DNA of 64,000 nt from Candidatus Marinacidobacterales bacterium (GCA_965224085.1 CBDCYI010000009.1:268057-332056); one strand, 5' to 3'. Positions 25,532-42,199 are shown, counted from the first letter of the stretch. Numbers and translations: made by a program. The notes: generated by a model from the sequence alone, not told the origin.

Positions 25532-26086
25532 GTGGAAATGTCCAGCCGCGATGAGCTCGAGAGCTTGGCGGAACAAGCTCGACAAGGAAGCTCGGAGGCC
25601 TGGGCCGAACTCTATGAAGCCAATGCACCCGCGATATTCCGACTTTGCCGCCGAGCTCTCAACAACCGGCAAGACGCTGAAGACGCCACCGCCGCCGTCT
25701 TTCTCAAGGCAAGGATGCGCCTCAAACAATTTGACACTTCGCGACCCTTCGCACCTTGGATCTATCGCGTCGCGGCGAACCACTGCTGGGACGAGCTGCG
25801 CAAGCGAAGAACCCACGGCGAGTGGGACGAGGCCGAATCGGAGCTCCAAAAACTGCAAGACGATGCCCCAACGCCTCAGCAGGCGGTTTTGCTCAACGAG
25901 ACCAAACGGAACGTCCGGAACGCCATCGCCGAGCTCGACGAACGAGCTCGGCTCGCCGTCATCCTGCGGTACTTCGCCGACATGAGCTACGAAGAGATCG
26001 GCGATGTGCTCGGCATTTCGAGCAATTTCACAGGGGTTTTGTTGCTGCGAGCGCGGCGTCAAATGAGGACGAGGCTCAAACAGTGA
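25532..26086 (+). CDS. ECF (sigma-70 family, group 4) RNA polymerase sigma factor
   Basis: Region 2 (FAPWIYRVAANHCWDELRKRR) and region 4 (YEEIGDVLGISSNFTGVLLLRARRQMR) motifs. Confidence 0.8.
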   Translation: MEMSSRDELESLAEQARQGSSEAWAELYEANAPAIFRLCRRALNNRQDAEDATAAVFLKARMRLKQFDTSRPFAPWIYRVAANHCWDELRKRRTHGEWDEAESELQKLQDDAPTPQQAVLLNETKRNVRNAIAELDERARLAVILRYFADMSYEEIGDVLGISSNFTGVLLLRARRQMRTRLKQ

Positions 26087-27711
26087 GCGAGAGCACGAAG
26101 CACGTCGAGGAGCTGACCGTCATGAGGTTTTTGGACGGCGAGCTCTCGCAGGAGCGCGAACAGAAAACGCGCGAGCATCTAATCTGCTGCGCCAGCTGTC
26201 GCTCGGCCCACGAAGCCTTGAAGGCGGAGACCGAGCTCTTGCGCGCCGCCGTGCTCGAGCGTGAAGAAGCGTTACCCGGCCATCTGAGGCCGCGTCACGC
26301 CGACGTGTCGTGGGTACTGGTGGCGATGATCGCGTTCGGCACGCTCGCCGTCTCGAGCCTTTGGACGCGCTATGTCCAGCCCATCATCGAAAGCATGGAG
26401 AGCATCGGGCTCGACGGGACGAGCGTCGCGACATCCCTTGTCGTTCAAGGAGTTCTCTGGGAAGGTTGGTCCGATATGTTGACGAGTTTCGTCGAGGGCG
26501 TGTCCCTCTTACTAGTGGCGGTCGCCGCGGGCTACGTGCTGCATTGGGGCTGGCGACGCTTTCTTTCGTCGGCGGTGACACTCTCGCTGCTGCTGGTCGC
26601 CCTCCCGGGCCTACTCGCAGCGCCTGCGAGTGTTTCGGCTGCGATCATCAAGCACGACGTGGAAACCTACACGCTGCGAGAAGGAGAGGTTATCGATAAC
26701 GATCTCATCGTCTTCGGCAAGAGAGTTGTGATCGAGGGGACCGTCGTTGGCGACCTCATTGTCGGCGCGGGCTCCGTCGAAGTTTTGGGCGAAGTGCAGG
26801 GGGACGTTCTCGGCTTTGCTGAGCGCATCGAGGTAAATGGCCGGGTTGGCGGCAATGTGCGCACCTGCGCTCGCACGCTCGTTGTCAACGGAGAGGTGGG
26901 GCGCAACATCACCGCGGGCGGCGAGGTCATTCGCTTAGGCCCGGGAGCGACACTCGGAGGAAGCTTCACTGCCGGGTCGAAAGAAGTGAGTTTACGCGCA
27001 CCGGTCACGCGCGATCTCGTAATGGCGGCCGAAACGTCCGAGATCCACGCGCGTATCGGCGGCTCGGCACTCGTCTTCGGCGAACGGCTCACGGTGGGCC
27101 CGACCGGGGCCATCGGCGGCGAGGCGAGATTTTTCGGCTCCCAAGAGCCGGAAGTCTCGGCTGATGCCGAGCTCACTTCGCCATTCGAGTTCGAAAGGGT
27201 CGACGACGACGACGAGTCGCTGACGTCCAGAGTTTGGGCCTTCTTCGGATACTGGGCCGCCGCGTTCATATTGGGTGCCGCGATCATGCTCGTGACCCCC
27301 GAAGCGACGGAAGGCGTCGTGACCCGCCACGTCCCCGACTATGGCAAGAGCTTCGTCGTCGGCGTCGTCGCGTCCGTCGTGCTCTTCGCGTTCACCTTCC
27401 TTGTGTCGGTCACCGTCGTCGGTCTTCCTCTCGGGTTGACGACGGCTTTCTTCCTGACTATCGGGCTGTACTTCGCGCAAGCGTATATCGGGGCCTATAT
27501 CGGCCGCGAGATTCTCGGTACACCAACCAGTGCCGGGCAAGCGCTCGGCCGCGTGGCACTCGGACTGTTTTTGATTTACATTGCCAAGTCGATTCCCGTC
27601 GTCAATGTTGTCGTTACGATCATTGTAGCTATCTGGGGTTTTGGGGCGCTGTCGCTTTACCTCATCGACCAACTCAAACACGCAAAGAAGGCCGACCCGG
27701 CGGAGGCTTGA
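26083..27711 (+). CDS. Anti-sigma factor (zinc-finger ZAS type) fused to a bactofilin-like beta-helix repeat region and a C-terminal polytopic membrane domain
   Basis: GTG start overlapping the sigma stop (GTGA). ZAS motif HLICCASCRSAH; TM helix; repeated V/G-rich units (VIEGTVVGDLIVGAGSVEVLGEVQGDVLGFAERIEVNGRVGGNV...) typical of polymer-forming cytoskeletal (bactofilin/CcmA) domains; 4-5 C-terminal TM helices. Confidence 0.6.
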   Translation: MSESTKHVEELTVMRFLDGELSQEREQKTREHLICCASCRSAHEALKAETELLRAAVLEREEALPGHLRPRHADVSWVLVAMIAFGTLAVSSLWTRYVQPIIESMESIGLDGTSVATSLVVQGVLWEGWSDMLTSFVEGVSLLLVAVAAGYVLHWGWRRFLSSAVTLSLLLVALPGLLAAPASVSAAIIKHDVETYTLREGEVIDNDLIVFGKRVVIEGTVVGDLIVGAGSVEVLGEVQGDVLGFAERIEVNGRVGGNVRTCARTLVVNGEVGRNITAGGEVIRLGPGATLGGSFTAGSKEVSLRAPVTRDLVMAAETSEIHARIGGSALVFGERLTVGPTGAIGGEARFFGSQEPEVSADAELTSPFEFERVDDDDESLTSRVWAFFGYWAAAFILGAAIMLVTPEATEGVVTRHVPDYGKSFVVGVVASVVLFAFTFLVSVTVVGLPLGLTTAFFLTIGLYFAQAYIGAYIGREILGTPTSAGQALGRVALGLFLIYIAKSIPVVNVVVTIIVAIWGFGALSLYLIDQLKHAKKADPAEA

Positions 27712-28175
27712 TGATTCGCACGATACAGGAATTCTTCCAACAACGCATCATCACCGAACAAACGCCGGTGGTGTCGCTCGAGCGCGCGCTACAACTAGCG
27801 ACAACCGCGCTCCTGATCGAGATTTCGCGTGCGGACTTCGAAGTCGCGGACGAGGAGCGTATCGCCATCGAAGAAGCTCTCACGCGTAGCTTTGGGCTCA
27901 CTGAGGATGAAACACGTGAGATCATCGCCCTTGCCGAGGAGGAAGTCGACGCCTCGGTCTCGCTCTACGAGTTCACCCGCCTCGTCGATGACAGCTTCAC
28001 CTACGAGCAGAAGAAACACATCATCGGGCTCTTGTGGCAAATCGCGTATAGCGACGATCGGCTCGAGGAGCACGAAGAACATCTGATCCGCAAGATCGCC
28101 AAGCTACTGCATATCGACCACAGCGACTTCATCGCCGAGAAGCTCAGGGCAAAGGAAGCCCAGGCGAGGACGTAA
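27711..28175 (+). CDS. TerB-like (tellurite-resistance TerB / DjlA N-terminal-like) domain protein
   Basis: ATG overlaps the anti-sigma stop (TGATG). 154-aa acidic helical protein with TerB-like pattern (EEALTRSFGL, KKHIIGLLWQIAYSDDRLEEHEEHLIRKIAKLLHI). Confidence 0.5.
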   Translation: MIRTIQEFFQQRIITEQTPVVSLERALQLATTALLIEISRADFEVADEERIAIEEALTRSFGLTEDETREIIALAEEEVDASVSLYEFTRLVDDSFTYEQKKHIIGLLWQIAYSDDRLEEHEEHLIRKIAKLLHIDHSDFIAEKLRAKEAQART

Positions 28176-29542: not shown

Positions 29543-30160
29543 TATGATTCCAAAAGAACTGTTGCCAAGGATTATTTATGTGGAGTTGTTTAGGACGAGG
29601 TAAATGAAAAAGCAGGATAAAGTTGCGGGTTCGGTCGATGGATGGATAAGACCCGAGCTATGAGACACAGGCCTTTTGCGGACCCCTAGCGAACTGCTCG
29701 TCATGGAATCAACAAAGCGAGATCACTTTTTACTGTCCGATTAATACTAATGTCGTGTTTAGGTACAGCAATACTATAGGCGGCTTCCCTTTGGTGTCAA
29801 GACGAAAAAGAAGAGGCGGGACCAAACCACGCCCAATTGACTATCGATGAACGGTTTATCCGACAGGCGTCATTTCATACCGTAGATTTATGTAGGCGCT
29901 AGATCTTCCTTCCAATAATCAGAACCCGACTCAAACGGATGGCGCTTGATCTTCATTCGGCTTTTCGCGTAGTATTAGTGGCAGAGTTCGGGCTAATGCT
30001 AGTCCGGGCACCACAACCGGCACATCCACAACTGAAATCACGATTCTCATATCGCGATAGCTATCTATCGAGGGGATGAGGCGACTTTGTCGCTTCGTCG
30101 CGCTGCCGCCACCCAACATCGCAAGCGGCAGTGGTTCGAAATGTCGAAAGGAGCGGAATC

Positions 30161-30976
30161 GTGCAGGAGTTTCTAGTAGCGGTCGTGGCCTTTCCCACGA
30201 TCGTGTTCACGTTCGGTCTCGCGGTCGCCCTCCTCTACTGGCTCGTCGTGATCTTCGGCGCGCTCGACCTGGACTTTCTCGACAGCGCGCTCGGTCTCGA
30301 CAGCATGGATGCCGCTCTCGACGGAGCGCTCGAATCGATCGACGGGATGGCAGACGGGGCCGTCGAAGGTGTGGTGGAATCGATCGATGGTGCGGTCGAC
30401 GGCGCGGCGGAAGGCGCAGCGGACGCCGCTGATTCGGGAGATACGAGCGACGGGGCCCGGCAGGGCGCCCTTTCCGGGCTCTTGAACATGATGGGTGTTC
30501 GCGGCGTTCCCATCACGGTCGTTGCGAGCTTCGTGCTGCTCTGGGCATGGATTATCAGCATGGTCGGCTCCAAATTGCTGGGCGCGGCGGCGGCGACGTT
30601 CCTCGTCGGCGGCTTTCTCACAGGATCATCGGTCCTCGGTTCGTTGGTCCTTGCGGCGGTCACCGCTCGGCCTTTCCGGAAAATCTTCGTGACACCCTCT
30701 GCGCCCAGTCGCGTTTCGCTCGTCGGAAAAATCTGTATCGTGACTTCCGCGAAAGTCGACGGTGAGTTCGGCCGCGCCGAGATCGATGACGGCGCGACCG
30801 GTTTCGTCGCCGAAGTGCGATGCCCGCAGGACAACCAATTGACACGAGGCGCCAACGCGCTCGTGTATCGCTACGACCCGGCCGACGGCGTCTTTTTCAT
30901 TGGACCCGTCGACGATGCCTTGGCTACAGCATCGAATGTGGTCGATTCACAGTCTGGCTCGATAGGGGGAGGATAA
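30161..30976 (+). CDS. NfeD-family membrane protein (partner of SPFH/flotillin proteins)
   Basis: GTG start with RBS AAAGGAG 8 nt upstream. Two N-terminal TM helices, Asp/Ala/Gly-rich acidic segment (LDSMDAALDGALESIDGMADGAVEGVVESIDGAVDGAAEGAADAADSGD), two more TM helices, and a C-terminal NfeD OB-fold-like domain (GKICIVTSAKVDGEFGRAEIDDGATGFVAEVRCP...ALVYRYD). Stop TAA is immediately followed by the flotillin ATG. Confidence 0.65.
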   Translation: MQEFLVAVVAFPTIVFTFGLAVALLYWLVVIFGALDLDFLDSALGLDSMDAALDGALESIDGMADGAVEGVVESIDGAVDGAAEGAADAADSGDTSDGARQGALSGLLNMMGVRGVPITVVASFVLLWAWIISMVGSKLLGAAAATFLVGGFLTGSSVLGSLVLAAVTARPFRKIFVTPSAPSRVSLVGKICIVTSAKVDGEFGRAEIDDGATGFVAEVRCPQDNQLTRGANALVYRYDPADGVFFIGPVDDALATASNVVDSQSGSIGGG

Positions 30977-33025
30977 ATGTATTGGGTAATGGTCATTATC
31001 GCCGTCGGCGTGGGCGTGCTCATTCTGGGCATGGGCCTTTTGATGCTCATCGCCAAGTTCTATCGCAAGGTAGAACAAGGCAAAGCGCTCGTCGTCAACA
31101 AGATGAAGCAAGAGCCTGAAGTCACGTTTACCGGCGCCACGGTGCTCCCCGTAATCCACAAGGCCGAGGTCATGGATATCTCGGTGAAGACACTCGAGAT
31201 CGACCGGCGCGCGAAAGACGGACTGATCTGCCGTGACAACATTCGGGCCGACATCAAAGTCAACTTCTTCGTCCGCGTAAATAAACGCAAGGAAGATGTC
31301 ATCAGAGTCGCGCAGTCCATCGGCTGCGCCCGCGCCTCATCTCCCGAAACGCTCGACGAGCTCTTCAGCGCCAAGTTCTCCGAAGCGCTGAAGACGGTCG
31401 GCAAGCAGCTCGACTTCGTCGACCTCTACACGAAGCGCGACGAATTTCGCGACGCCATCATCCAGATCATCGGGCGCGACTTGAACGGCTACGCGCTCGA
31501 GGACGCGGCCATCGACTATCTCGAGCAGACCCCCCTCTCACATCTCGACCCGCAGAACATCCTCGACGCCCAAGGCATTCGCCGTATTACCGAGCTCACC
31601 GCGATCGAGCACATCCAAACGAACGAGTTCGAGAACAACGAGAAAAAAGCCATCACGAAACAGGACGTCGAGCGCGCAAAAGTCATCCTCGAGCTCGATC
31701 GCGAGCATGCGGACGCTGAGTCGAAGCAAAAGCGCGAGATCGAATCGGTACGCGCGCGCGAATTGGCCGCGCTCCAGCAAGTCCAGGCGGAAGAGCGGCT
31801 CAAGTCCGAAACGGCGCGCATCAAGACGGACGAAGAAGTCCAGGTCGCCGAGGAGAACAAGAATCGCCAGGTCCAGGTTGCTGCCAAGAACCGCGAGCGC
31901 ATTATTGGCGTCGAGACCGAGCGGGTCTTGAAAGACCGCCAGCTCGAACAGGTGGTCCGCGAACGTGAAGTCGAGCTCCAGCGCATCGACAAAGAGAAAG
32001 CGCTCGAAGTCGAGCGAAAAGAGATCCAGGACGTTATCCGCGAACGCGTCGCTGTCGAGCGCACCGTTGTCGAGGAACAGGAGCGCATCAAAGAGCTCCA
32101 GGTCGTCGAGGAGGCCAAGCGCACCAAGCAGGCCACCATCATTACGGCCGAGGCCGAAGCGGAAGAAGCCCTCGTCAAGGACATCAAAGCCGCCGAGGCC
32201 CAGGAGCAGGCTGCGAAGCACAAAGCCGTCGAGCGCATCACCCTCGCCGACGCCCAGCTCGAGGCCGCCGACCGCGACGCAAAAGCCAAGATCCGTCTCG
32301 CGGAAGGTACCCAGGCGGAAGCCGCAGCCGAAGGGCTCGCGGCCGCGAGGGTCAAAGAGGCCGACGCCGTCGCCTCCGAGAAGCACGGCCTCGCTGAAGT
32401 CCGGGTCCAGGAAGCGCAAGCGGGCGCTATCGAGCAAGTCGGCACCGCGGAAGCGACCGTGGTTCGCGAGAAAGGCGTCGCCGAGGCGCACACCATCCAG
32501 CAGAAGTTCGGCGCTGAGGCGAAAGGCCTCGCGGAAAAAGCCGAGGCGATGAAAGCGCTCGACAAAGACAGCCGCCAGCACGAGGAGTACCGCATCCGCC
32601 TCGAGAACGAGCGCCTGCTCGGTCTCGAAGCGATCCAAGCGCGCGAAGCCGTCGCCGCGCACAAAGCCCAGGTCCTCTCCAAAGCGCTCGAGTCGGCGGA
32701 TATCGACATCGTCGGCGGCGACGGTGTCTTTCTCGACCGCATGGTGAATTCCATCAGCATGGGCAAGGGCGTCGACGAGCTCGTCGATCAAAGCGACGTC
32801 ATCTCCGGGCTCGCCAAAGACTATTTCAATGGCGACAAGAACATCATCAAAGAGATCCGTCAGATCATGAAGGATTCCGGCATCGACGGAGGCATGCTCA
32901 AGGACATCACCATCGGGGCGCTTCTGACGAAGATCGCTACCGATATGGGAGGAGACGATCACGAAAAACTGAAGAAGCTTCAACGGCAAGCCAAAGCCTT
33001 GGGCATCGACGACGTTCGGCTATAA
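30977..33025 (+). CDS. Flotillin-family SPFH/band-7 protein (FloT/YuaG/YqiK-like), 682 aa
   Basis: N-terminal TM helix, SPFH domain (KALVVNKMKQEPEVTFTGATVLPVIHKAEVMDISVKTLEIDR...RDNIRADIKVNFFVRV), long E/A/K/R-rich coiled-coil flotillin region and a C-terminal tail. Confidence 0.85.
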   Translation: MYWVMVIIAVGVGVLILGMGLLMLIAKFYRKVEQGKALVVNKMKQEPEVTFTGATVLPVIHKAEVMDISVKTLEIDRRAKDGLICRDNIRADIKVNFFVRVNKRKEDVIRVAQSIGCARASSPETLDELFSAKFSEALKTVGKQLDFVDLYTKRDEFRDAIIQIIGRDLNGYALEDAAIDYLEQTPLSHLDPQNILDAQGIRRITELTAIEHIQTNEFENNEKKAITKQDVERAKVILELDREHADAESKQKREIESVRARELAALQQVQAEERLKSETARIKTDEEVQVAEENKNRQVQVAAKNRERIIGVETERVLKDRQLEQVVREREVELQRIDKEKALEVERKEIQDVIRERVAVERTVVEEQERIKELQVVEEAKRTKQATIITAEAEAEEALVKDIKAAEAQEQAAKHKAVERITLADAQLEAADRDAKAKIRLAEGTQAEAAAEGLAAARVKEADAVASEKHGLAEVRVQEAQAGAIEQVGTAEATVVREKGVAEAHTIQQKFGAEAKGLAEKAEAMKALDKDSRQHEEYRIRLENERLLGLEAIQAREAVAAHKAQVLSKALESADIDIVGGDGVFLDRMVNSISMGKGVDELVDQSDVISGLAKDYFNGDKNIIKEIRQIMKDSGIDGGMLKDITIGALLTKIATDMGGDDHEKLKKLQRQAKALGIDDVRL

Positions 33026-33043
33026 CGGAAGGCTCACGTAATC

Positions 33044-36000
33044 ATGAGCACGGACGTACAACAACAACCCGAGATCGAGCGCGGCACTTACGAGATCATC
33101 CGGGACCGCTTGCTCGGCCACGGCAAGACACTCGCCGAGAAAGCCGATGGACTCAACAGGAAACGCCTCGAGATCTTCGGAGGCACCGAGCTCGCGGTCC
33201 TGGGCAACGAGCGCATCCGGACCGAGAACAACTGCATCCCGCGCGACATCAAGGAGGTGGGTAACCACCTCCTGTTCGGCTATAACGTTTTCATCGGCCT
33301 CAAGCGCGAGACTCGCGTTGAGGACGTTTTCAGCCTTCACAGCTACGAGAAGACGGAGGACGGCTTCGTTTTTCGCAAAGTCGAAAAAAACTCTCCCGAC
33401 TACTTTCTCTCGGACGTGAAATTTCTAGAGGAGTTCCACGAGCTCTATCACTATTACAAGAACACCAAGCTCCTCCAGCTGAGACGGGTCAGCGAGAAGC
33501 TTCTCGCGGTATTCCAAATTGGCGAGAAGATCGAGGACGTGCGCGTGTTCCGCTGGGCCATCTCCACCGACGGCGCGGTTACCTATATCGACAACCGCGG
33601 CGAGCGCGACCACGTTTTCCCTCGGACCCATGACTTCGAATGGACGCTCACAGCGCGTGAAGAGCACGTGCAGGGCCGTCACCCGCACGTCAACATTCTC
33701 GACGAAGTTTTCGTCGAGACCGTCGGCGGCGATCTCACGATCAAGGTCGAGAACAACACCGAAGACGGCCAGGGTATCTATCGCGAGCCGGTGCTCGACG
33801 CCGACCAATCTTTGGACGACGCGGAAGTCCACTACGCAGAAGTGGGCACGCTCATTCTTCTGAAGATGCTCCCCTACCGCGAAACGGATTACCGATATCT
33901 CGTCTTCAACACGCGCACCAATCACGTCGATCGCATCGACGCCATCGGCCAATCCTGCGTACAGCTTCCCGAGGACCACGGCGTCATCTTTCCGGGCGGC
34001 TACTACCTGAAGAGCGGCCACACAAAGTCCTTCGAGCGCGATTTCCGCGGGATGGAGTTCCTGAGACGTCTGCGCTCCCCGAACGGCGAAGACGTCCTTT
34101 ACGCGTTTCACGAGCGTGAATCTGGGCGCACGATCCTACTTCCGTACAACATGATCCGGAAGGAGGTCGACAACCCGCTCAATTGCCACGGCTTCAGCCT
34201 CTATCCCGACGGCACGCTCGTCGTGTTCCGCGCTGGCGACGACGAGCCCAAACGCGTCCATGGGATGCAAGTCTGGCGCACGCCCTTCTTGAGCGAAGAG
34301 GCGGTGCAGTCGCGGCCGCCCACCGGCTCGTTCCTCGAGAAAGTGGGCAATGCCGAGCTCGTGCGCGGCGTCTCCGACTGCTTGAGCATTCGCCGCATGG
34401 TCGACGAGCAGGAGCCGACGCGGCAGAAATACGAGGACCTCGTCGCGGCGGCGGCACGCGTCATCGACAGCTATTACTGGCTCGACAACCCCGAGATTGG
34501 AGACCTGCGCGAGCCGCTCCGGAACGTTCACGAGTCCGCCGAGAGCATCATCGACGAGTTCGAAAAAGTCGAAGCGCTAAGGGCGCAAGCGAGAAGGACT
34601 CTCGACGAGGCCGGCGAGAAGGTCCAGGAGATCTTCCGAACCATTTATCCCGATTCCTGGACCTCGATCGACCAATATGTCGCCTGTCTCGCGAGCTTAC
34701 GCTCGGCGCGCGGGCACCTCATTACGCTCCGCGAAACACGCTATGTCGATCTCGCCCGAATCGACACGGTCGAAGCGGAGATTGTCGAGCGCTTCGATAA
34801 TGTCAGCGAGCGCGCCGTCGAGTTTCTTCTGCAAGACGAAGCACTACTTCCCTATCAAGAACGCGCGGGCGCGCTCGAGGACGGTGTTCCCGGCCTCTCG
34901 AAAGTTACCGAGGCGAACGCCCATCAAGACGCCCTCCAAGAGTTCGGCGACAGTCTCGATCTCTTGACCGATGTGGTCAGCTCGCTCGAGATCGACGACG
35001 CCACGGTCCGCACGCAGATTCTCGGGAACATCTCGGAGATCTTGGGAAGCCTCAACCGCGTCCGTGCGCTCATCACCAACCGGCGCAAAGAGCTTCTCGG
35101 CAAAGAAGGCATCGCTGAGTTCGGCGTGCAATTCCAGCTTTTGAGCCAAAGCGTAACGAGCGCTCTATCTCTCTCCGACACGCCCGAGAAATGTGACGAA
35201 CAGCTCTCGAAGCTCATGCTCCAGCTCGAAGATCTGGAAACCCGTTTCTCCGAGTACGAAGAGTTCACGGACGAGCTCACGACCAAGCGCGAGGAAATCT
35301 ACGAGGCGTTCAGCTCGAAGAAGCAGTCCCTTGTCGACCGGCGCCAGCGCCGCGCGCAAAACTTGATGCAGGCCGCCGAGCGTATTCTAGGAAGTGTGAC
35401 GCGGCGCGCGGAGACGTTCGAGACCGCCGACGACCTGAACGCCTATTTCGCTGCTGACGCGATGGTCGCCAAGCTCCGGAGCACGTCAAACAATTTGCGA
35501 GAGCTCGGCGACTCTGTCCATGCCGACGAGATCGACGGCCGACTCAAAGCCGCCAAAGAAGACGCCGCCCGCGGACTTCGCGACCGCCAGGAGATCTACG
35601 AGGACGGCGCCAACGTCATCAAGCTCGGCAGGCACCGCTTCAGCGTCAACACTCAGCCTCTCGAGCTCACCATGGTGCCTCGCGACGACGCCATGGCCTT
35701 TCATCTCACCGGCACCGGCTTCTACGAGCAGGTCGACGATGAGACCTTCGGAAAAACGCAGGATTTCTGGTCGCAAGAGCTCGTTTCCGAAACGCGTTCA
35801 GTCTATCGGGGCGAATATCTGGCCTATTGCGTGCTCGAAGACGCAGAGCTCGGAGATTCCGAGTTGTCGCTCAAGAAGCTCCTCCAAGCCACCCGCGGCG
35901 AAGGGGCGCTTCTGGGCATCATACGCGACTATGCGGCTCTGAGATATGACGAGGGGTATGAGCGCGGCCTCCACGACGCCGACGCGACGCTGATCTTGCA

Positions 36001-38416
36001 AAAGATCCTGGGCATGCACGAGACCGCGGATCTGCTTCGCTTCACCCCGAACGCGCGCGCACTGGCTACCGTTTTCTGGGCGCTCTACGACGACCGGAAA
36101 AAGCGCGCGGCCTGGGAAAGCCAAGCTCGCAGCCTCGTCCGCCTCCGCACCCAATTCGAGCACACGGAGGCGATGACGGAGCTCGGTGGCGAGCTCAACG
36201 AAGCGATCGCGACCCATCTCGCCGAGATCGGGATCGATGTGCCGACGCAGGCGTCCCGTCTAGCCGGCGCCTACCTGCTCGAAGAGATCGCGCGCGAGCC
36301 GCAGAAATTCGTCCTGAGCGCGGATGCAAACGAGCTCAAGCGCGCTTTCGAAAAGCACTTGCGTGAGTCCGGCGGCGACCGCGAGCTCGAACAGGACTTG
36401 CGCGCGCTCAGCGACACGCCCGTGCGCGCTTACGAGCTCACGGAGGCGTGGATGGCCGCCTTTCTCTCGAGCTCGGAAAACGGCGATCGCTTGGCTCGCT
36501 CTTCCCTCGAGGCCGTCGTCGCGCTTCTTTTCGAAGACAAAGTGAGCCGAGACACCTCGAGCGCGCAGTCCAAAGTCACGGTCGAGGGGCTCCTTGGCCA
36601 GCACCCCCGCATGCCGCAAGGCCGTATGGAGCTCCATCTAGACGAATTCCTCTCGCGGCTCGGCCATTTTCGACATCGACAAGTCAGAGGCTTCAGAGAG
36701 TTCCAAAAAGCCCGCCACGACGTGCTCGAGCACGAGCGTGAGAATCTACGTCTCGACGAGTACAAGCCCAAGGTCATGTCGTCTTTCGTGCGCAACCGGC
36801 TCATCAACGACGTGTATCTACCGCTCATCGGCGACAACCTCGCGAAACAGATGGGGGCTCTCGGCGACGCCAAGCGCACCGACCTCATGGGGATGCTTCT
36901 CCTCATCTCACCTCCGGGCTACGGCAAGACGACTTTGATGGAGTACCTCGCCAACCGGCTCGGCCTCGTCTTCATGAAGATTAACGGCCCCGCCCTCGGC
37001 CACTCGGTCACATCGCTAGATCCAGGCGAAGCACCGAACGCCACCGCGCGCCAGGAGGTCAACAAGCTCAACCTCGCTTTCGAGATGGGCAACAACGTCC
37101 TTCTCTACATCGACGACATCCAGCACACCCATCCCGAATTTCTCCAGAAATTCATCTCGCTCTGCGACGCACAGCGAAAAGTGGAAGGTGTTTGGAAAGG
37201 TCGGACGCGCACTTACGATCTGCGCGGCAAGAAGTTCGTCGTGTGCATGGCGGGAAACCCTTACACGGAATCCGGCGAAAAATTCCAAATCCCAGACATG
37301 CTCGCGAACCGCGCCGATACCTACAATCTAGGCGACATCCTCGAAGGCAAAGACGACTTCTTCGCGCTTTCCTACATCGAGAACGCGCTCACGTCGAACG
37401 CCGTCCTCGCGCCCCTCACGACGCGCGAGCAAAGCGATATCGAGTTGCTCGTGCGCATGGCGAATGGCGAGGCGATTCAAGCGGATCAGTTGAAGCACGG
37501 CTACTCCGCCGTCGAGATCGGCGAGATCCAGTCCGTTTTGAAGAAGCTTCTCAAAGTCCAGCAGGTGCTCCTCGCGATCAACCAGCAATATATTCGCTCG
37601 GCGTCGCAAGAAGACGCCTATCGCACCGAGCCGCCTTTCAAGCTCCAGGGGAGCTACCGCAACATGAACAAGCTCGCTGAGAAGATCGTGGCCGCGATGA
37701 ACGACGACGAGCTCGAAAGCCTCATCGACGACCACTATCTCGGCGAATCGCAGACTTTGACGACGGGCGCCGAAGAGAACCTTCTCAAGCTTGCCGAGAT
37801 GCGCAGCCGGATGAGCGAGAGCCAGAAGGCACGCTGGGAGGAGATCAAAAGCGGTTTCGTTCGAGTGCAACGCATGGGGGGCGGCGACGACGACCCCGCG
37901 ACGAGGCTCACGGGACAGCTCAGCCTGGTCTCCGAGCATCTCGAAGACATCGGTCAGAGCATCGAGCGCGCCGCCTCGAGTGCTGCTTCTCGCCCGCAAG
38001 CGATCTCGGCGGATCCCGACCTCAGCGCGTTCACCGCGCGGGACGTCGAGGTCAAGCTCGACCTCGCTCCCTATATCGACAAGCTCCACGAGCTTCTCGA
38101 GGCCTTCCAGAACGGGCAAACACAACTCGCCGCCGCACCGCAGATCAAGGGCGAGGCCCAGGCGCCGCCAGCGGATTACGAGCTCATCTCACGCGAGTCC
38201 TACCTCATCGAAGGCACCCTCATCCCGTTGATGCGCTTCATGGCGCATCGCTTCCGGGGCTATCGCGGGGTGGACGACCCGAAAATCAAAGCGCTCATAC
38301 AGAGACTCGAATATGTCGACGATCTCCAGGAGCTCGTCAACGCGCTCGAGAAAATCAACGTCTCCGCCCTCTCGAACATAACCGACGAAGAGGAGACGGA
38401 CGAGGCCTCGACATGA
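33044..38416 (+). CDS. Giant (1790 aa) protein of unrecognised N-terminal architecture with a C-terminal MoxR/AAA_5-like ATPase domain
   Basis: Uninterrupted ORF with RBS GGAAGG upstream. Single P-loop LLISPPGYGKTTLMEYLANRLGL and Walker B NVLLYIDDIQHTHPEF, with sensor region FVVCMAGNPYTESGEKFQIPDMLANRADTY (AAA_5/dynein-related fold), at about residues 1285-1430. About 1280 aa upstream and 350 aa downstream show no motif I can assign. Confidence 0.7.
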   Translation: MSTDVQQQPEIERGTYEIIRDRLLGHGKTLAEKADGLNRKRLEIFGGTELAVLGNERIRTENNCIPRDIKEVGNHLLFGYNVFIGLKRETRVEDVFSLHSYEKTEDGFVFRKVEKNSPDYFLSDVKFLEEFHELYHYYKNTKLLQLRRVSEKLLAVFQIGEKIEDVRVFRWAISTDGAVTYIDNRGERDHVFPRTHDFEWTLTAREEHVQGRHPHVNILDEVFVETVGGDLTIKVENNTEDGQGIYREPVLDADQSLDDAEVHYAEVGTLILLKMLPYRETDYRYLVFNTRTNHVDRIDAIGQSCVQLPEDHGVIFPGGYYLKSGHTKSFERDFRGMEFLRRLRSPNGEDVLYAFHERESGRTILLPYNMIRKEVDNPLNCHGFSLYPDGTLVVFRAGDDEPKRVHGMQVWRTPFLSEEAVQSRPPTGSFLEKVGNAELVRGVSDCLSIRRMVDEQEPTRQKYEDLVAAAARVIDSYYWLDNPEIGDLREPLRNVHESAESIIDEFEKVEALRAQARRTLDEAGEKVQEIFRTIYPDSWTSIDQYVACLASLRSARGHLITLRETRYVDLARIDTVEAEIVERFDNVSERAVEFLLQDEALLPYQERAGALEDGVPGLSKVTEANAHQDALQEFGDSLDLLTDVVSSLEIDDATVRTQILGNISEILGSLNRVRALITNRRKELLGKEGIAEFGVQFQLLSQSVTSALSLSDTPEKCDEQLSKLMLQLEDLETRFSEYEEFTDELTTKREEIYEAFSSKKQSLVDRRQRRAQNLMQAAERILGSVTRRAETFETADDLNAYFAADAMVAKLRSTSNNLRELGDSVHADEIDGRLKAAKEDAARGLRDRQEIYEDGANVIKLGRHRFSVNTQPLELTMVPRDDAMAFHLTGTGFYEQVDDETFGKTQDFWSQELVSETRSVYRGEYLAYCVLEDAELGDSELSLKKLLQATRGEGALLGIIRDYAALRYDEGYERGLHDADATLILQKILGMHETADLLRFTPNARALATVFWALYDDRKKRAAWESQARSLVRLRTQFEHTEAMTELGGELNEAIATHLAEIGIDVPTQASRLAGAYLLEEIAREPQKFVLSADANELKRAFEKHLRESGGDRELEQDLRALSDTPVRAYELTEAWMAAFLSSSENGDRLARSSLEAVVALLFEDKVSRDTSSAQSKVTVEGLLGQHPRMPQGRMELHLDEFLSRLGHFRHRQVRGFREFQKARHDVLEHERENLRLDEYKPKVMSSFVRNRLINDVYLPLIGDNLAKQMGALGDAKRTDLMGMLLLISPPGYGKTTLMEYLANRLGLVFMKINGPALGHSVTSLDPGEAPNATARQEVNKLNLAFEMGNNVLLYIDDIQHTHPEFLQKFISLCDAQRKVEGVWKGRTRTYDLRGKKFVVCMAGNPYTESGEKFQIPDMLANRADTYNLGDILEGKDDFFALSYIENALTSNAVLAPLTTREQSDIELLVRMANGEAIQADQLKHGYSAVEIGEIQSVLKKLLKVQQVLLAINQQYIRSASQEDAYRTEPPFKLQGSYRNMNKLAEKIVAAMNDDELESLIDDHYLGESQTLTTGAEENLLKLAEMRSRMSESQKARWEEIKSGFVRVQRMGGGDDDPATRLTGQLSLVSEHLEDIGQSIERAASSAASRPQAISADPDLSAFTARDVEVKLDLAPYIDKLHELLEAFQNGQTQLAAAPQIKGEAQAPPADYELISRESYLIEGTLIPLMRFMAHRFRGYRGVDDPKIKALIQRLEYVDDLQELVNALEKINVSALSNITDEEETDEAST

Positions 38417-38480
38417 ACGCGCTAGACCTGCGCGCCATGTTACGATTCCCAAAACCGGTTCTCACCGAAGGGAGTTCGTG

Positions 38481-39236
38481 ATGGGGTTATTCGAGCGGAT
38501 CCGAGCGGTCTGGTACGCCATAATCAACAAATCCGTCACTGAGATGGAGGACGCGCACGTGATCGCACTCGCGGAGCACAAGCTCCAGCAGGCCACCGAG
38601 CGACTGAAAGAGGCGCGCCAAGGCTTGATCAGCTATCAAGCACTCGTTTTGAAAGTCGAAGGGCAAGTCGGAAGCGAAAAGTCGCGCATCGCGAGCGTCA
38701 CCGGGCAGATCAAGAACCACTTGAAGGCCAATCAGGAAGAGATGGCCGGCCAGCTCGCTCTCGAGCTCGCTCGGGTCAAAGGCGAGCTCGAAAGCAACAC
38801 CGAGCAGCTCGCACAACATCGCGAGAGCTACGAGAACAACCTTCTGAAGATGAAAGCGGCGCTCAAGGACATCGAGACGGCCAAGCAGGACCTCGACAAG
38901 AAGAAAGCCGCGCTTCAGATGGAGAAGGCTTTGGCCGAAGTCTCCGAGACCGCCGGCGCGCTCAACACCCAGTTCGATGTTTCTTCCGACATCGGCTCGA
39001 TCCTGAGCCGCGTCGACGACCAGATCAATAAAGCCAAAGCGCGCTCGAAGGTCGCCTCCGATCTGAGCGATCAAGGCATCGATCAGCTCAAAGCGAAGCA
39101 ATCGGCAGACAAGGCCGAAGCTCAGGAGCTTCTCGCGCAGTTCAAGATCGAGCAGGGGCTCGCCGAGCCGTCTTCAGAAGCAAGTGAGAAAACTGTAGGA
39201 CCGCAGAGAGAAGCCACGCCAGAGTCCGGTGAATAG
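38481..39236 (+). CDS. pspA: PspA/IM30/Vipp1-family protein (bacterial ESCRT-III superfamily)
   Basis: Canonical N-terminus MGLFERIRAVW...MEDA (compare PspA MGIFSRFADIV..., Vipp1 MGLFDRLGRVV...); about 250-aa all-helical coiled-coil protein with E/K/Q heptads; RBS GGGAG upstream. Confidence 0.8.
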   Translation: MGLFERIRAVWYAIINKSVTEMEDAHVIALAEHKLQQATERLKEARQGLISYQALVLKVEGQVGSEKSRIASVTGQIKNHLKANQEEMAGQLALELARVKGELESNTEQLAQHRESYENNLLKMKAALKDIETAKQDLDKKKAALQMEKALAEVSETAGALNTQFDVSSDIGSILSRVDDQINKAKARSKVASDLSDQGIDQLKAKQSADKAEAQELLAQFKIEQGLAEPSSEASEKTVGPQREATPESGE

Positions 39237-40950
39237 CCCTTTGGGAAGCGGCGCGCCCACTTGGGCGCGGGAGCTTGCCTCGAGCTATGTCAGTGGGGCT
39301 GCAAGCGTCTTCCTTCTCTATGGAAACGTCCACGACCTCGTTCCGGTCACGGACTCGGACGAGTTCATCTCGCTCGACGACTATCTCGCCACGCAGCTCT
39401 TCGGCCAACGGGACATCGTTCTCGCCTACGATCGCGGTAGCGGCATCCGCTTTCTCGCTCCCGGGGATGCCGACCGTCGGGCGTCCATGCAAGAGGACTT
39501 TTACAAGACGCTCAAAGCCGTGGACTCGGTAAGCGGCACAAGCTTCGCGAGCTCGAGGCCTAAAGATCCCAAAGTCGTGTTCGAGCTCCTCGACCGCTAC
39601 ATCCTCCACAAGCTCGTCGAAACGCCTGCAGACGGCAATCGCAAGAGCCTCGCGATCGTGATCTGCTATGTCGAGACCATCACGCCGGCCGTCGATGGCT
39701 CGTGGCTCACGGGCGAGCTCGGCGCCAACCTCATCAAAGTGCTCAATTGGGCCAACGACCCTGGGATTCGAAGCGCTGATGTGACGCTTTGTCTCGTCAC
39801 GGAGAACCTCGGCGACGTAAACCGCCGCCTCGTCGAGAACCCATTCATCTCTAAAGTAGACGTCGAGCTCCCGGACGAGACGACGCGTGAGCGCTACGCG
39901 AGGCATTTGTTGAAAGACGCAGCAATGGCGAAGACGGTGGCCCGTGAAGGCAACGGGCTGACGCTCGTCGGTCTCGCACAGGCGGTCAGTGGCTCCGTCG
40001 AGCTCGCCAATTTGCAAGCGGCCAAAAAGGAGCTCATCGAGAAACAGTGCTTCGGCCTCGTCGAGTTCGTTGCTCCGAGCTACGACCTCGACATGGTTGT
40101 CGCGCCCGAGGCAGTCAAAGACCGCCTCGAGCAAGACGTGTCGCTATTCAAGAAGGGACGGCTCGAAGCGCTCCCGATGGGCTATCTCCTCTGCGGGGTC
40201 ATCGGCACCGGCAAGACATTTACGGCAACATGCTTTGCAGGAAGCCTCGGCATCCCAACGATCGTCTTCAAGAACCTCCGCAGCAAGTGGGTCGGAAGCT
40301 CCGAAGGCAATCTCCAAAAAGTGCTCTCGGTGATCAAAGCCCTCGGCCCCGTCGTCGTCGTCGTCGATGAAGCCGATGCCGCGCTGGGAAGCCGCGGGTC
40401 GAGCGGGGACAGCGGCACGTCGAGCCGCATGTTCGCGATGATCTCGTCACTCATGAGCGACACCGGTTACCGGGGGCGCATCCTGTGGATGCTCCTCACT
40501 TGCCGTCCTGACATGTTGCCCGTCGATTTGAAGCGGCAAGGTCGCTGCGAGGTCCACATCCCGCTCTTCCCGCCCGAGACTGAGAAGGCCCGCCACCAAA
40601 TGTTTCTCGCGATGGCGCGCACAAACGGCGTCGCGATCGCTCCCAGCGACGTTCCCACCCTGCCGGAAGAGCTCTCGGGCGCGGACATCGAAAGTCTGCT
40701 CGTGCAATGCGTCCGCCGCGCCGCGATCGCGGGCGCTGCTTCGCTCTCCGCCGCGCATATCCGTGACACGCTTGCCCACTTTCGATCACCGGATTATGGT
40801 CTCGAGAAGGAGCTGCAGCAGCTCGTCGCCATCCGCGAGAGCACCGACCCCAACTTCATCCCAAAGCGACTGCGAACGCGTTACGGAGCGCCGGACAAGG
40901 CGATAGCCCTCGAGCACCGCATTCAGGAGATCGCAGCACTTCTCCAATGA
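39229..40950 (+). CDS. Classic-clade AAA+ ATPase (Vps4/CDC48/FtsH-like AAA domain) with a 280-aa N-terminal domain
   Basis: GTG start overlapping the pspA stop by 8 nt. Walker A GVIGTGKTF, SKWVGSSEGNL (compare Vps4/spastin SKWxGESEK), Walker B VVVVDEADA, second region of homology LLTCRPDMLPVDLKRQGRCEVHIPLFPP (Arg fingers). Confidence 0.8.
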   Translation: MNSPLGSGAPTWARELASSYVSGAASVFLLYGNVHDLVPVTDSDEFISLDDYLATQLFGQRDIVLAYDRGSGIRFLAPGDADRRASMQEDFYKTLKAVDSVSGTSFASSRPKDPKVVFELLDRYILHKLVETPADGNRKSLAIVICYVETITPAVDGSWLTGELGANLIKVLNWANDPGIRSADVTLCLVTENLGDVNRRLVENPFISKVDVELPDETTRERYARHLLKDAAMAKTVAREGNGLTLVGLAQAVSGSVELANLQAAKKELIEKQCFGLVEFVAPSYDLDMVVAPEAVKDRLEQDVSLFKKGRLEALPMGYLLCGVIGTGKTFTATCFAGSLGIPTIVFKNLRSKWVGSSEGNLQKVLSVIKALGPVVVVVDEADAALGSRGSSGDSGTSSRMFAMISSLMSDTGYRGRILWMLLTCRPDMLPVDLKRQGRCEVHIPLFPPETEKARHQMFLAMARTNGVAIAPSDVPTLPEELSGADIESLLVQCVRRAAIAGAASLSAAHIRDTLAHFRSPDYGLEKELQQLVAIRESTDPNFIPKRLRTRYGAPDKAIALEHRIQEIAALLQ

Positions 40951-41456
40951 AAGACGGCCTCGTTCGCAGACAAGTCAAGCGCATCGGCCTCGGCGTCTTC
41001 CACGCGCGTCTGTTTCTTCACCGCCTTCAGGCCGACACGCGTTACGAGCTCGGCGGCGAGTGCATCCGCTGCGGCAAATGTTGCTTGGAGCCAGGAATTC
41101 AAGTCGGCCGCATCGCTTGGTACCTCCCCGGCTGCCGGCGGGTCTTTCTCTGGTGGCACCGAGTTGTCAACGGCTTCACGCTCAAGGAGGCCCGGCGGGA
41201 AGACCGCGTGTTCATTTTTGAGTGCAGCCATTTCGACTGGGCGTCGCGGAGCTGCGACAGCTACCACTCCCGGCCCGGAATGTGCCGCGACTACCCGCGC
41301 CTGTTCCTCGAACAGGCCAACCCCGAGTTTTTCGACGAGTGCGGTTTCAAAGCGCTCGCTCGAGGCCGGGACAGCCTCATCCAAATTCTCGAGAAAGAAT
41401 CTCTTACGCCGCAGCAGCTGGCCAAGCTGAAAAAAGGCCTTTATCTCGAAGATTGA
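40947..41456 (+). CDS. YkgJ-family cysteine-cluster protein (UPF0153; putative Zn/Fe-binding)
   Basis: ATG overlaps the AAA+ stop (ATGA). Motifs CIRCGKCC and CSHFDWASRSCDSYHSRPGMCRDYP match the YkgJ CxxCxxCC...C..C..RP..CR.YP pattern. Confidence 0.6.
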   Translation: MKDGLVRRQVKRIGLGVFHARLFLHRLQADTRYELGGECIRCGKCCLEPGIQVGRIAWYLPGCRRVFLWWHRVVNGFTLKEARREDRVFIFECSHFDWASRSCDSYHSRPGMCRDYPRLFLEQANPEFFDECGFKALARGRDSLIQILEKESLTPQQLAKLKKGLYLED

Positions 41457-41566: not shown

Positions 41567-42199
41567 ATGCGTAGACTGAAGATCCGGAGTTATCTCGCCA
41601 CCGGTCTACTAGTCTGGATTCCGCTCGCCGTGACCCTCTTCGTCCTCCGGGTGCTGATAAATTTGATGGATCAGTCCCTCCTGCTGATCCCGCCGTCGTT
41701 GCGTCCTGAGAATCTATTGGGGTTCAGCATCCCGGGCCTGGGCGTCATTCTCACGTTCACGCTCGTCACCGTGACCGGTTTTTTGGCCGCGAACTTTCTC
41801 GGCAAACGGCTATTGGCGACCTCGGAAGGGCTTCTCGCACGTATCCCGCTTGTGAGCTGGGTCTATTCCGGCGTAAAGAAGGTGGCGGAAACGCTCTTGT
41901 CGCCGACGAGCGAGTCGTTTCGCAAAGTGCTCCTGATGGAGTACCCTCGCAAAGGCATCTGGAGCGTCTGCTTTCAAACGTCGAGCGAGCTTGGCGAGAT
42001 ACAGATTCGTACGGGGAAGGAAGTGCTCTGCGTGTTCGTCCCCACGACCCCGAACCCCACCTCTGGTTTCGTCATTTTCGTTCCCCGCGATGAGGTCATC
42101 GAGCTCGATATGACGGTCGACCAAGCATTGAGGATGATCATCTCGCTCGGCGTCGTGGTTCCCGAGTGGCGCCGCCGCGAGCTCATGCCGGTAGGTTGA
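41567..42199 (+). CDS. DUF502-family membrane protein
   Basis: Two N-terminal TM helices (LLVWIPLAVTLFVLRVL; GLGVILTFTLVTVTGFLAANFLG) and a conserved DUF502 core (RIPLVSWVYSGVKKV...VLLMEYPRKGIWSVCFQT). Confidence 0.6.
   Translation: MRRLKIRSYLATGLLVWIPLAVTLFVLRVLINLMDQSLLLIPPSLRPENLLGFSIPGLGVILTFTLVTVTGFLAANFLGKRLLATSEGLLARIPLVSWVYSGVKKVAETLLSPTSESFRKVLLMEYPRKGIWSVCFQTSSELGEIQIRTGKEVLCVFVPTTPNPTSGFVIFVPRDEVIELDMTVDQALRMIISLGVVVPEWRRRELMPVG

Follow-up and report, generated by a model that had tools for sequence, protein, structure and literature searches.

Results

A PspA gene overlaps the gene of an AAA+ ATPase in a Marinacidobacterales genome

In a 64-kb stretch of DNA from a Candidatus Marinacidobacterales bacterium (GCA_965224085.1 CBDCYI010000009.1:268057-332056; referred to herein as the window, with all absences from the window reported below referring to these 64 kb), a gene encoding a 251-aa PspA/IM30 protein of the ESCRT-III superfamily (38481..39236, plus strand) is followed immediately by a gene encoding a 573-aa classical AAA+ ATPase (39229..40950, plus strand). 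A preliminary description of this DNA had interpreted the two genes as a bacterial ESCRT-III/Vps4-like pair. The PspA reading frame is open from a GTG at 38478 and ends with a TAG at 39234-39236; as homologues open with MGLF, the ATG at 38481 was taken as the start. The ATPase begins with a GTG at 39229; the coordinates of both genes and the resulting 8-nt overlap, which holds the PspA stop codon (GTGAATAG), agree with the earlier account. The relative L084 (73% identity) has an identical ATPase start and the same overlap of 8 nt, and gene callers agree on this start. The overlap is limited to close relatives, the two genes being separated by 5–507 nt elsewhere, and the stoichiometric co-expression that had been deduced from it was therefore an over-reading.

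The assignment of the upstream gene to PspA/IM30 was borne out by Pfam, by alignment with Vipp1 and by synteny. The protein scores 44.1 bits with PF04012 (PspA_IM30; gathering score 33.9), its residues 2–225 covering profile positions 1–218 of 220, and it aligns with Synechocystis Vipp1 (sll0617, from the PDB) from residue 1 to residue 247 (E 1e-4), with MGLFERI opposite MGLFDRL. In addition to this above-threshold match over the full length of the family profile, we found the N-terminal amphipathic helix α0 (MGLFERIRAVWYAIINKSV; 38481-38537, plus strand) and the long coiled-coil hairpin that mark members of the family.

The ATPase is predicted to combine a degenerate and an intact AAA+ module

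The C-terminal half of the ATPase contains a presumably active classical AAA module, D2 (residues 286–517; 40084..40779, plus strand), which matches PF00004 over residues 320–445 with 74 bits. On the same strand, it carries a Walker A motif, GVIGTGKTF (residues 323–331; 40195-40221), a pore loop 1, KWVG (residues 353–356; 40285-40296), a Walker B motif, VVVVDEADA (residues 376–384; 40354-40380), a pore loop 2, GDSGTSSR (40405-40428), and the two arginines of the second region of homology (SRH), R436 and R439, in DLKRQGRCE (within 40525-40551). Across 69 homologues, down to 46% identity, G323, G326, T327, G328, K329, G356, D380, E381, R436 and R439 are invariant and K353 is nearly so, while the pore-loop aromatic alternates between W and Y. 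D2 thus has the Walker A and Walker B motifs, the pore loop 1 and the pair of SRH arginines that together characterise the classical AAA clade (PF00004), as had been proposed from the same motifs. Sensor 1, which in classical AAA proteins is usually an asparagine (ATNRPD), lies at residues 422–428 (40492-40512) and reads LTCRPD in the window protein; the position is Cys, Ser or Ala across the family, and T424 is invariant.

Residues 1–285 (39229..40083, plus strand) had been suggested, as a 280-aa N-terminal region, to be an MIT-like substrate-recognition module. This was not upheld: fold prediction yielded an α/β AAA+ module, D1, and no Pfam match to an MIT domain was found in the ATPase even at E=10. 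At the P-loop position of D1 (LLYGNVHDLV; 39313-39342, plus strand), G32, N33 and D36 are invariant and GK[ST] is absent, and the strand corresponding to Walker B (AIVICYVETI; 39652-39681, plus strand) has no conserved acidic pair. Because it lacks both of these nucleotide motifs, D1 is a degenerate AAA+ module that is presumably non-hydrolysing. Profile-profile comparison of D1 with D2 using hhalign gave a weak match (E 0.045) whose aligned positions are sensible (the β5-to-lid segment, 'I.IPLPD...R'); since sequence comparison alone is insufficient at this level, the structure prediction is decisive for the assignment of D1. An AlphaFold2 model of the full-length ATPase (pLDDT 89.1) was matched by Foldseek to N-terminally deleted Rix7, AFG2/Drg1, p97 and Cdc48 over approximately 560–630 columns (E ~1e-19 to 1e-20, TM ~0.5). 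On this model, the ATPase is a tandem type II protein (D1+D2) and not a single-ring Vps4. As D1 begins at about residue 10, there is no space for a Cdc48-type N-domain comprising a double-psi barrel and a β-clam.

D2 is followed by a C-terminal extension of about 55 residues (residues 518–573 and the stop codon; 40780..40950, plus strand), delimited by the AlphaFold2 model and by conservation. It is predicted to form helices at residues 525–537, 546–553 and 555–572; Q530, E537, T539 and R564 are invariant, and F518, F543 and P545 nearly invariant. It has no match in Pfam or other databases, and could serve in oligomerisation or partner binding.

When D1 alone served as the query against 1.84 billion proteins, 993 representatives at 50% identity were retrieved (E<=1e-3), with a typical full length of 560–620 aa. 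No fusion of PspA to the ATPase, which would have been Rosetta-stone evidence, was found among these representatives, the long ones being proteins with three AAA modules: in P0145, P0155 and P0165 (~820–856 aa), two degenerate copies of D1 precede the active module. A further variant, P0239 (721 aa), joins a D1-like N-terminal module (33% identity to that of the window) to an FtsH-type AAA domain and Peptidase_M41, and looks like a soluble FtsH-like protease in which a dead AAA module has replaced the membrane anchor.

The active module scores closer to Cdc48 and VAT than to Vps4

The preliminary description had read the SKWVGSSE sequence of pore loop 1 as a pointer to Vps4. Among the NCBIfam models, CDC48 (TIGR01243) scored highest at 58.8 bits, followed by PAN (49.6), IteA (48), FtsH (38.8) and the archaeal Vps4, CdvC (29.4); all of these scores are far under the respective cutoffs, which are 802 bits for CDC48, 650 for CdvC and 510 for IteA. 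A profile of D2 built from the family scored VAT-D2 at 74 bits, VAT-D1 at 57, Vps4 at 55 and spastin at 47; the yeast Vps4 and human spastin AAA references used here were confirmed against PDB chains, which they matched without gaps (686 and 595 bits, or 2.1–2.2 bits per residue). The 60 best PDB sequence matches of the ATPase were all VAT, Cdc48, p97, AFG2, SPATA5, Rix7 or NVL, with no Vps4, spastin or katanin among these 60. Within the D2 region the best match reached E 7e-30, with the D2 modules of VAT, AFG2 and Cdc48 on top. VAT D2 itself carries SKWVGESEK, and the R-x-G-R spacing in the SRH is also as in VAT; the pore-loop sequence is therefore not diagnostic of Vps4. By this ranking of scores, rather than by a full phylogeny, D2 appears nearer to Cdc48/VAT than to Vps4/CdvC. 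The ATPase is a Cdc48-like tandem AAA+ protein of the classical clade, without an N-domain, in which D1 is dead and D2 live as judged by their motifs.

PspA accompanies the ATPase across at least six phyla

To survey the pairing, one genome per species was scanned, which gave at least 591 genomes with a relative of the ATPase; 80 species-level loci were fetched and their six-frame open reading frames searched with the window proteins and a PspA profile. These loci span at least six phyla, and include Acidobacteriota, Planctomycetota, Gemmatimonadota, Myxococcota/'Deltaproteobacteria', Balneolaceae, Chitinophagaceae and one Acidimicrobiales bin. PspA lies directly upstream of the ATPase on the same strand in 41 of the 80 loci (gaps of 5–507 nt), and 3–8 kb upstream on the same strand, within a longer operon, in another 24. 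Seven loci are uninformative, their upstream sequence being shorter than 1.2 kb. PspA was not seen in the remaining eight, five of which have a flank too short for the long-operon form. A same-strand upstream PspA is thus present in 65 of 68 informative loci, and the adjacency of PspA and the ATPase is far beyond chance.

In the longer operons of Acidobacteria and Gemmatimonadota, PspA is followed by an NMT1-type solute-binding protein with OmpA, a BPD_transp_1 permease, an ABC_tran ATPase, a membrane-anchored coiled-coil protein of ~290 aa (referred to herein as F2) and the tandem ATPase. In Planctomycetota, the order is PspA, the tandem ATPase, a small protein, the solute-binding protein, the permease, the ABC ATPase and F2. 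The extended form was found in L002, L043, L037 and others. Comparison of F2 with the PspA alignment gave no hhalign signal, and the published similarity of this membrane-anchored protein to Snf7 was not reproduced. One 608-aa protein, P0233, has the look of a fusion of F2 to D1, and is either a genuine fusion, which would count as Rosetta-stone evidence, or a gene-calling read-through. In nine loci from Balneolaceae and a Chitinophagaceae bin (L032, L044, L054, L058, L061, L065, L067, L073 and L075), a short PspA-like reading frame of ~155 aa directly follows PspA, and the operon runs PspA, short PspA, F2, enoyl-CoA hydratase, a CNNM/CBS/CorC transporter and the ATPase.

ATPase-linked PspA proteins share a C-terminal tail

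Column conservation in 64 aligned PspA proteins linked to the ATPase drew our attention to a C-terminal tail, which in the window protein reads FKIEQGLAEP ... KTVGP (residues 221–241; 39141..39203, plus strand). The consensus is F[EK]h[EQ]xGLxxP(E), followed by K-x-[LV]-G-P. A strict form of the pattern, G[LM]..P.{3,14}K.[LVI]G, is present in 49 of the 64 proteins and missing from Escherichia coli PspA. The tail lies mostly outside the Pfam PspA model, whose match stops at residue 225, and the helix that precedes it (ELLAQFK) is the generic C-terminal helix of PspA (EQLAQLK in E. coli). Of this C-terminal segment, GLxxP...KxLGP is the portion specific to the subfamily.

The window holds a bare PspA-ATPase dyad beside a flotillin module

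No F2, solute-binding protein, permease, ABC ATPase or small F7 gene was found anywhere in the window, which therefore holds a bare PspA-ATPase dyad without the usual transporter and transmembrane coiled-coil genes. Downstream, a 169-aa CxxCxxCC protein of the YkgJ type, a putative Zn/Fe chelator (40947..41456, plus strand; PF03692, 26.5 bits against a gathering score of 23), starts with a 4-nt overlap at the ATPase stop codon (ATGA), and is followed by a 210-aa DUF502 membrane protein (41567..42199, plus strand; PF04367, 115 bits). The order PspA, ATPase, CxxCxxCC, DUF502 is kept in L081, L084 and L086/87 (71%), and L001 (71%) retains the first three genes. The CxxCxxCC gene is absent from the loci of other phyla, making it a clade-specific third gene of the operon, with DUF502 as the fourth.

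Upstream, a membrane module of three genes (30131..38416, plus strand) ends 64 nt before the PspA ATG. It encodes, on the plus strand, a 281-aa transmembrane protein (30131-30976), a 682-aa YqiK-type flotillin (30977-33025) and a 1790-aa DUF3686/DUF7902/AAA protein (33044-38416; DUF3686, 704 bits). The flotillin matches E. coli YqiK over residues 13–441 (E 3e-33); it had no SPFH/Band_7 match in Pfam even at E=10 and no PDB sequence match, and the Pfam model appears to miss this flotillin subfamily. L081 and L084 also have the module. In L086/87, the corresponding chromosomal site has a gene for Iso_dh on the opposite strand followed by PspA, ATPase, CxxCxxCC and DUF502 without the flotillin module, which is for this reason best regarded as a separable insertion or deletion. 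It was found in none of the 80 loci of other species. Its position next to the pair suggests a combined membrane-maintenance locus in this lineage.

A 9-mer located 35 nt before the PspA start, TGTTACGAT (38438..38446, plus strand), might be an extended -10 element. L087 and L001, whose operons begin with PspA, conserve this 9-mer, which hints, weakly, that the PspA-ATPase pair may keep its own promoter. A generic scan for promoters and terminators gave counts equal to those of shuffled sequence, was uninformative, and did not flag the 9-mer.

The preliminary description had also noted the absence of PspF and PspBC. Consistent with this, phmmer found no match (E<=1) to E. coli PspB, PspC or PspF in the window, and GAF[TS]GA did not occur in any of the six frames; the search is insensitive, E. 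coli PspA itself failing to match the window PspA, and the absence is thus weakly supported. Upstream of the divergent Iso_dh gene, 25532-28175 holds genes for an ECF-type sigma factor and a 651-aa bactofilin/DUF8173-like membrane protein, along with a TerB-like reading frame; L086/87 share this arrangement. These genes could provide an envelope-stress regulator near the PspA locus.

Discussion

The pairing described here is not new. Ravi, Anantharaman, Aravind, Gennaro et al. (mSystems 2024, PMC11237479; bioRxiv 2020) reported a dyad of an 'inactive classical AAA + classical AAA' with PspA, exemplified by AEY64320.1/AEY64321.1 of Clostridium sp. BNL1100 and by the OGG56892.1 operon, and noted that it may also form part of longer operons that encode, in addition, an ABC ATPase, a permease, a solute-binding protein (PBPB+OmpA) and a divergent Snf7 anchored in the membrane. 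They proposed 'ATP-dependent membrane remodeling ... comparable to Snf7 and VPS4', so that the analogy to Snf7 and Vps4 has likewise been published (2020/2024). As the loci homologous to that of the window show exactly the published operon architecture, the window ATPase belongs to the family of Ravi et al., an assignment based on architecture and operon identity. To their account our analysis adds structural assignments for D1 and for the complete protein, quantified synteny, a candidate PspA motif, and a minimal-operon variant that stands beside a flotillin/DUF3686 module. Our literature search found no experimental work on the tandem ATPase.

We consider the chances about even that PspA and its dedicated tandem AAA+ protein form an ATP-driven membrane-remodelling module. 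In this mechanism PspA, with its ESCRT-III fold, would polymerise on the cytoplasmic face of the inner membrane, and the co-expressed ATPase would assemble as a double-ring hexamer whose motor is D2, with D1 providing a ring for structure or docking. The ATPase would engage PspA subunits, plausibly through the GLxxP...KxLGP tail, which is a candidate recognition peptide, and the KWVG pore loops of D2 would thread or pull these subunits at the expense of ATP, so that PspA polymers are disassembled, recycled or reshaped as ESCRT-III is by Vps4. We infer the hexamer, the contact between PspA and the ATPase, the role of the tail as a handle, and disassembly over assembly as the direction of the reaction. 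The proposal is founded on what was observed here: the identities of the two proteins, the degenerate D1 in a tandem architecture, the intact motifs of D2, the tandem match to the substrate-threading unfoldases Rix7, AFG2, p97 and Cdc48, the synteny across phyla and the subfamily-specific tail. PspA would be the core, constant partner of the ATPase, because the lineage of the window keeps only these two genes of the longer operon and because L086/87 has the pair by itself, preceded by a separate intergenic region. Ravi et al. (2024) arrived independently at the same view.

Several observations weigh against such a remodelling role. Three loci (L021, L028 and L076) are truly without PspA although their upstream flanks exceed 6 kb. 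F2 is conserved in 51 of the 80 loci, often together with the ABC importer, and these proteins may be the true substrates or clients. The absence of an MIT domain from the ATPase, together with a PspA tail without evident resemblance to the MIM1 or MIM2 consensus, suggests that the recognition logic of Vps4 is not conserved. With Cys, Ser or Ala in place of the usual asparagine at sensor 1, the ability of D2 to hydrolyse ATP is an assumption. Finally, in the one well-studied pairing of PspA with an AAA+ protein, that of E. coli, PspA acts on PspF as an adaptor that inhibits it and is not the substrate of PspF. This precedent underlies the main rival, in which PspA acts as an adaptor or regulator that gates the ATPase or recruits it to damaged membrane, where it would extract or unfold other clients, for example misinserted membrane proteins or, in other lineages, F2. 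Cdc48-like tandem ATPases typically serve diverse clients through adaptors, many loci conserve F2 and the ABC importer alongside the pair, and P0233 resembles an F2-D1 fusion. Set against this, PspA and the ATPase persist in the window and its relatives, where F2 and the transporter are missing, which leaves PspA as the sole universal partner; the ATPase has neither a DNA-binding nor a protease domain through which a PspF-like or FtsH-like output could be produced; and the P0233 fusion may be a gene-calling read-through. We regard an adaptor role as possible, though rather unlikely.

The ATPase might instead serve the flotillin/DUF3686 machinery or general proteostasis, with the adjacency of PspA reflecting shared regulation under envelope stress and no direct interaction. 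The pair does sit 64 nt behind the flotillin/DUF3686 module in the window, and flotillin/AAA operons with PspA, composed of a flotillin, YqiJ/YuaF and a β-propeller/coiled-coil AAA protein, are listed by Ravi et al. (PMC11237479). The absence of the module from all 80 loci of other species and from the same site in L086/87, while the linkage of PspA to the ATPase persists across phyla, makes this improbable, as a tight linkage conserved in orientation over such a distance is rarely regulatory only. Even less can be said for a true Vps4-type enzyme, that is, a single AAA ring with an N-terminal MIT-like bundle that binds an MIM in the C-terminus of PspA. The classical AAA domain, its SKW.G pore loop and a conserved C-terminal peptide in PspA would all fit such an enzyme, yet the N-terminal region is an AAA+ module in a tandem architecture, the CdvC score of 29 bits falls far short of the cutoff of 650 and is lower than those of CDC48, PAN and FtsH, and the D2 profile favours VAT-D2 over Vps4 and spastin, with the R-x-G-R spacing of the SRH as in VAT. 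The MIT and single-ring features of this explanation are refuted by the AAA+ fold of D1 and the tandem superposition, and it is very improbable as a whole. The slightest chance of all goes to a role in anti-phage defence, with the ATPase as a relative of IetA/IteA from the IetAS system. PADLOC IetA (52 bits) and NCBIfam IteA (48 bits) are matched weakly over D2 and the C-terminal region, but the cutoff for IteA is 510 bits, no IetS protease partner or other protease gene is adjacent, the neighbours are housekeeping and membrane genes, the locus is syntenic in related chromosomes, and PADLOC gave no other notable match. With the similarity to IetA weak and IetS missing, we dropped the assignment to a defence system.

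Of the ESCRT-III/Vps4-like pair first proposed, then, the conserved functional pairing (65 of 68 loci) and a reasonable analogy of remodelling remain, while the ATPase itself is tandem and Cdc48-like and not a Vps4. We tentatively advance, with slightly less than even confidence, the fuller proposition that many bacterial phyla (Acidobacteriota, Planctomycetota, Gemmatimonadota, Myxococcota, Balneolaceae and others) hold a Cdc48-like tandem AAA+ protein with a dead D1 ring that grips the tail of PspA and disassembles PspA polymers, and that in this acidobacterial lineage it is also wired to flotillin/DUF3686 in one membrane-repair locus. Were this true, the ATPase would be a functional counterpart of Vps4, either of independent origin or echoing the presumed Cdc48-like ancestor of Vps4. 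Liu et al. (2021) posed the existence of a Vps4-equivalent ATPase for PspA/Vipp1 as an open question, and a 2025 review states that a Vps4-like ATPase 'appears absent in bacteria', a statement that our proposition would contradict. The PspA-ATPase pair is the obvious candidate for the acknowledged question of how PspA/Vipp1 polymers are disassembled or recycled. It is also experimentally tractable, as it consists of two soluble proteins with a predicted recognition tail and is amenable to standard Walker B trap mutants.

Among known systems, Cdc48/p97/VAT, Rix7 and AFG2 share with the window ATPase the tandem D1-D2 arrangement over the whole length and the same pore-loop and SRH motifs. Unlike these type II unfoldases, the window protein has no double-psi-barrel N-domain, its D1 has lost Walker A and Walker B, and it has extra C-terminal helices; with 58.8 bits against the cutoff of 802, it is not an orthologue of Cdc48. 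The ESCRT-III/Vps4 (CdvB/CdvC) system of archaea and eukaryotes resembles the window locus in that a gene of the ESCRT-III superfamily lies right upstream of a classical AAA+ gene, in the aromatic pore loop and two SRH arginines of the ATPase, and in a polymer subunit with a conserved C-terminal peptide. It differs in that the window ATPase has no MIT domain, contains two AAA modules and has a D2 apparently closer to Cdc48/VAT, and in that its partner comes from the PspA branch and not the Snf7 branch. The canonical proteobacterial Psp system (PspF-PspABC) likewise ties PspA functionally to an AAA+ protein; PspF, however, is a σ54 enhancer-binding protein with a GAFTGA loop and a helix-turn-helix, whereas the window ATPase is of the classical clade. 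The three genes upstream of the window PspA fit the flotillin (YqiK)/DUF3686 operons of Ravi et al., which include a YqiJ/NfeD-like transmembrane protein, although in the published operons PspA comes with a CesT/Tir chaperone gene and in the window with the tandem AAA+ protein. The dyad of Ravi et al. differs from the window locus in its surroundings, the transporter and transmembrane protein of its longer operons being missing from the window, where CxxCxxCC and DUF502 follow the pair and flotillin/DUF3686 precedes it. In both, the gene beside PspA encodes two AAA+ modules in a single polypeptide, of which the N-terminal module is inactive, and relatives of the window ATPase occur in operons of the OGG56892.1 type, with PspA, a solute-binding protein with OmpA, a permease, an ABC ATPase, a transmembrane coiled-coil protein and the tandem AAA+ protein.

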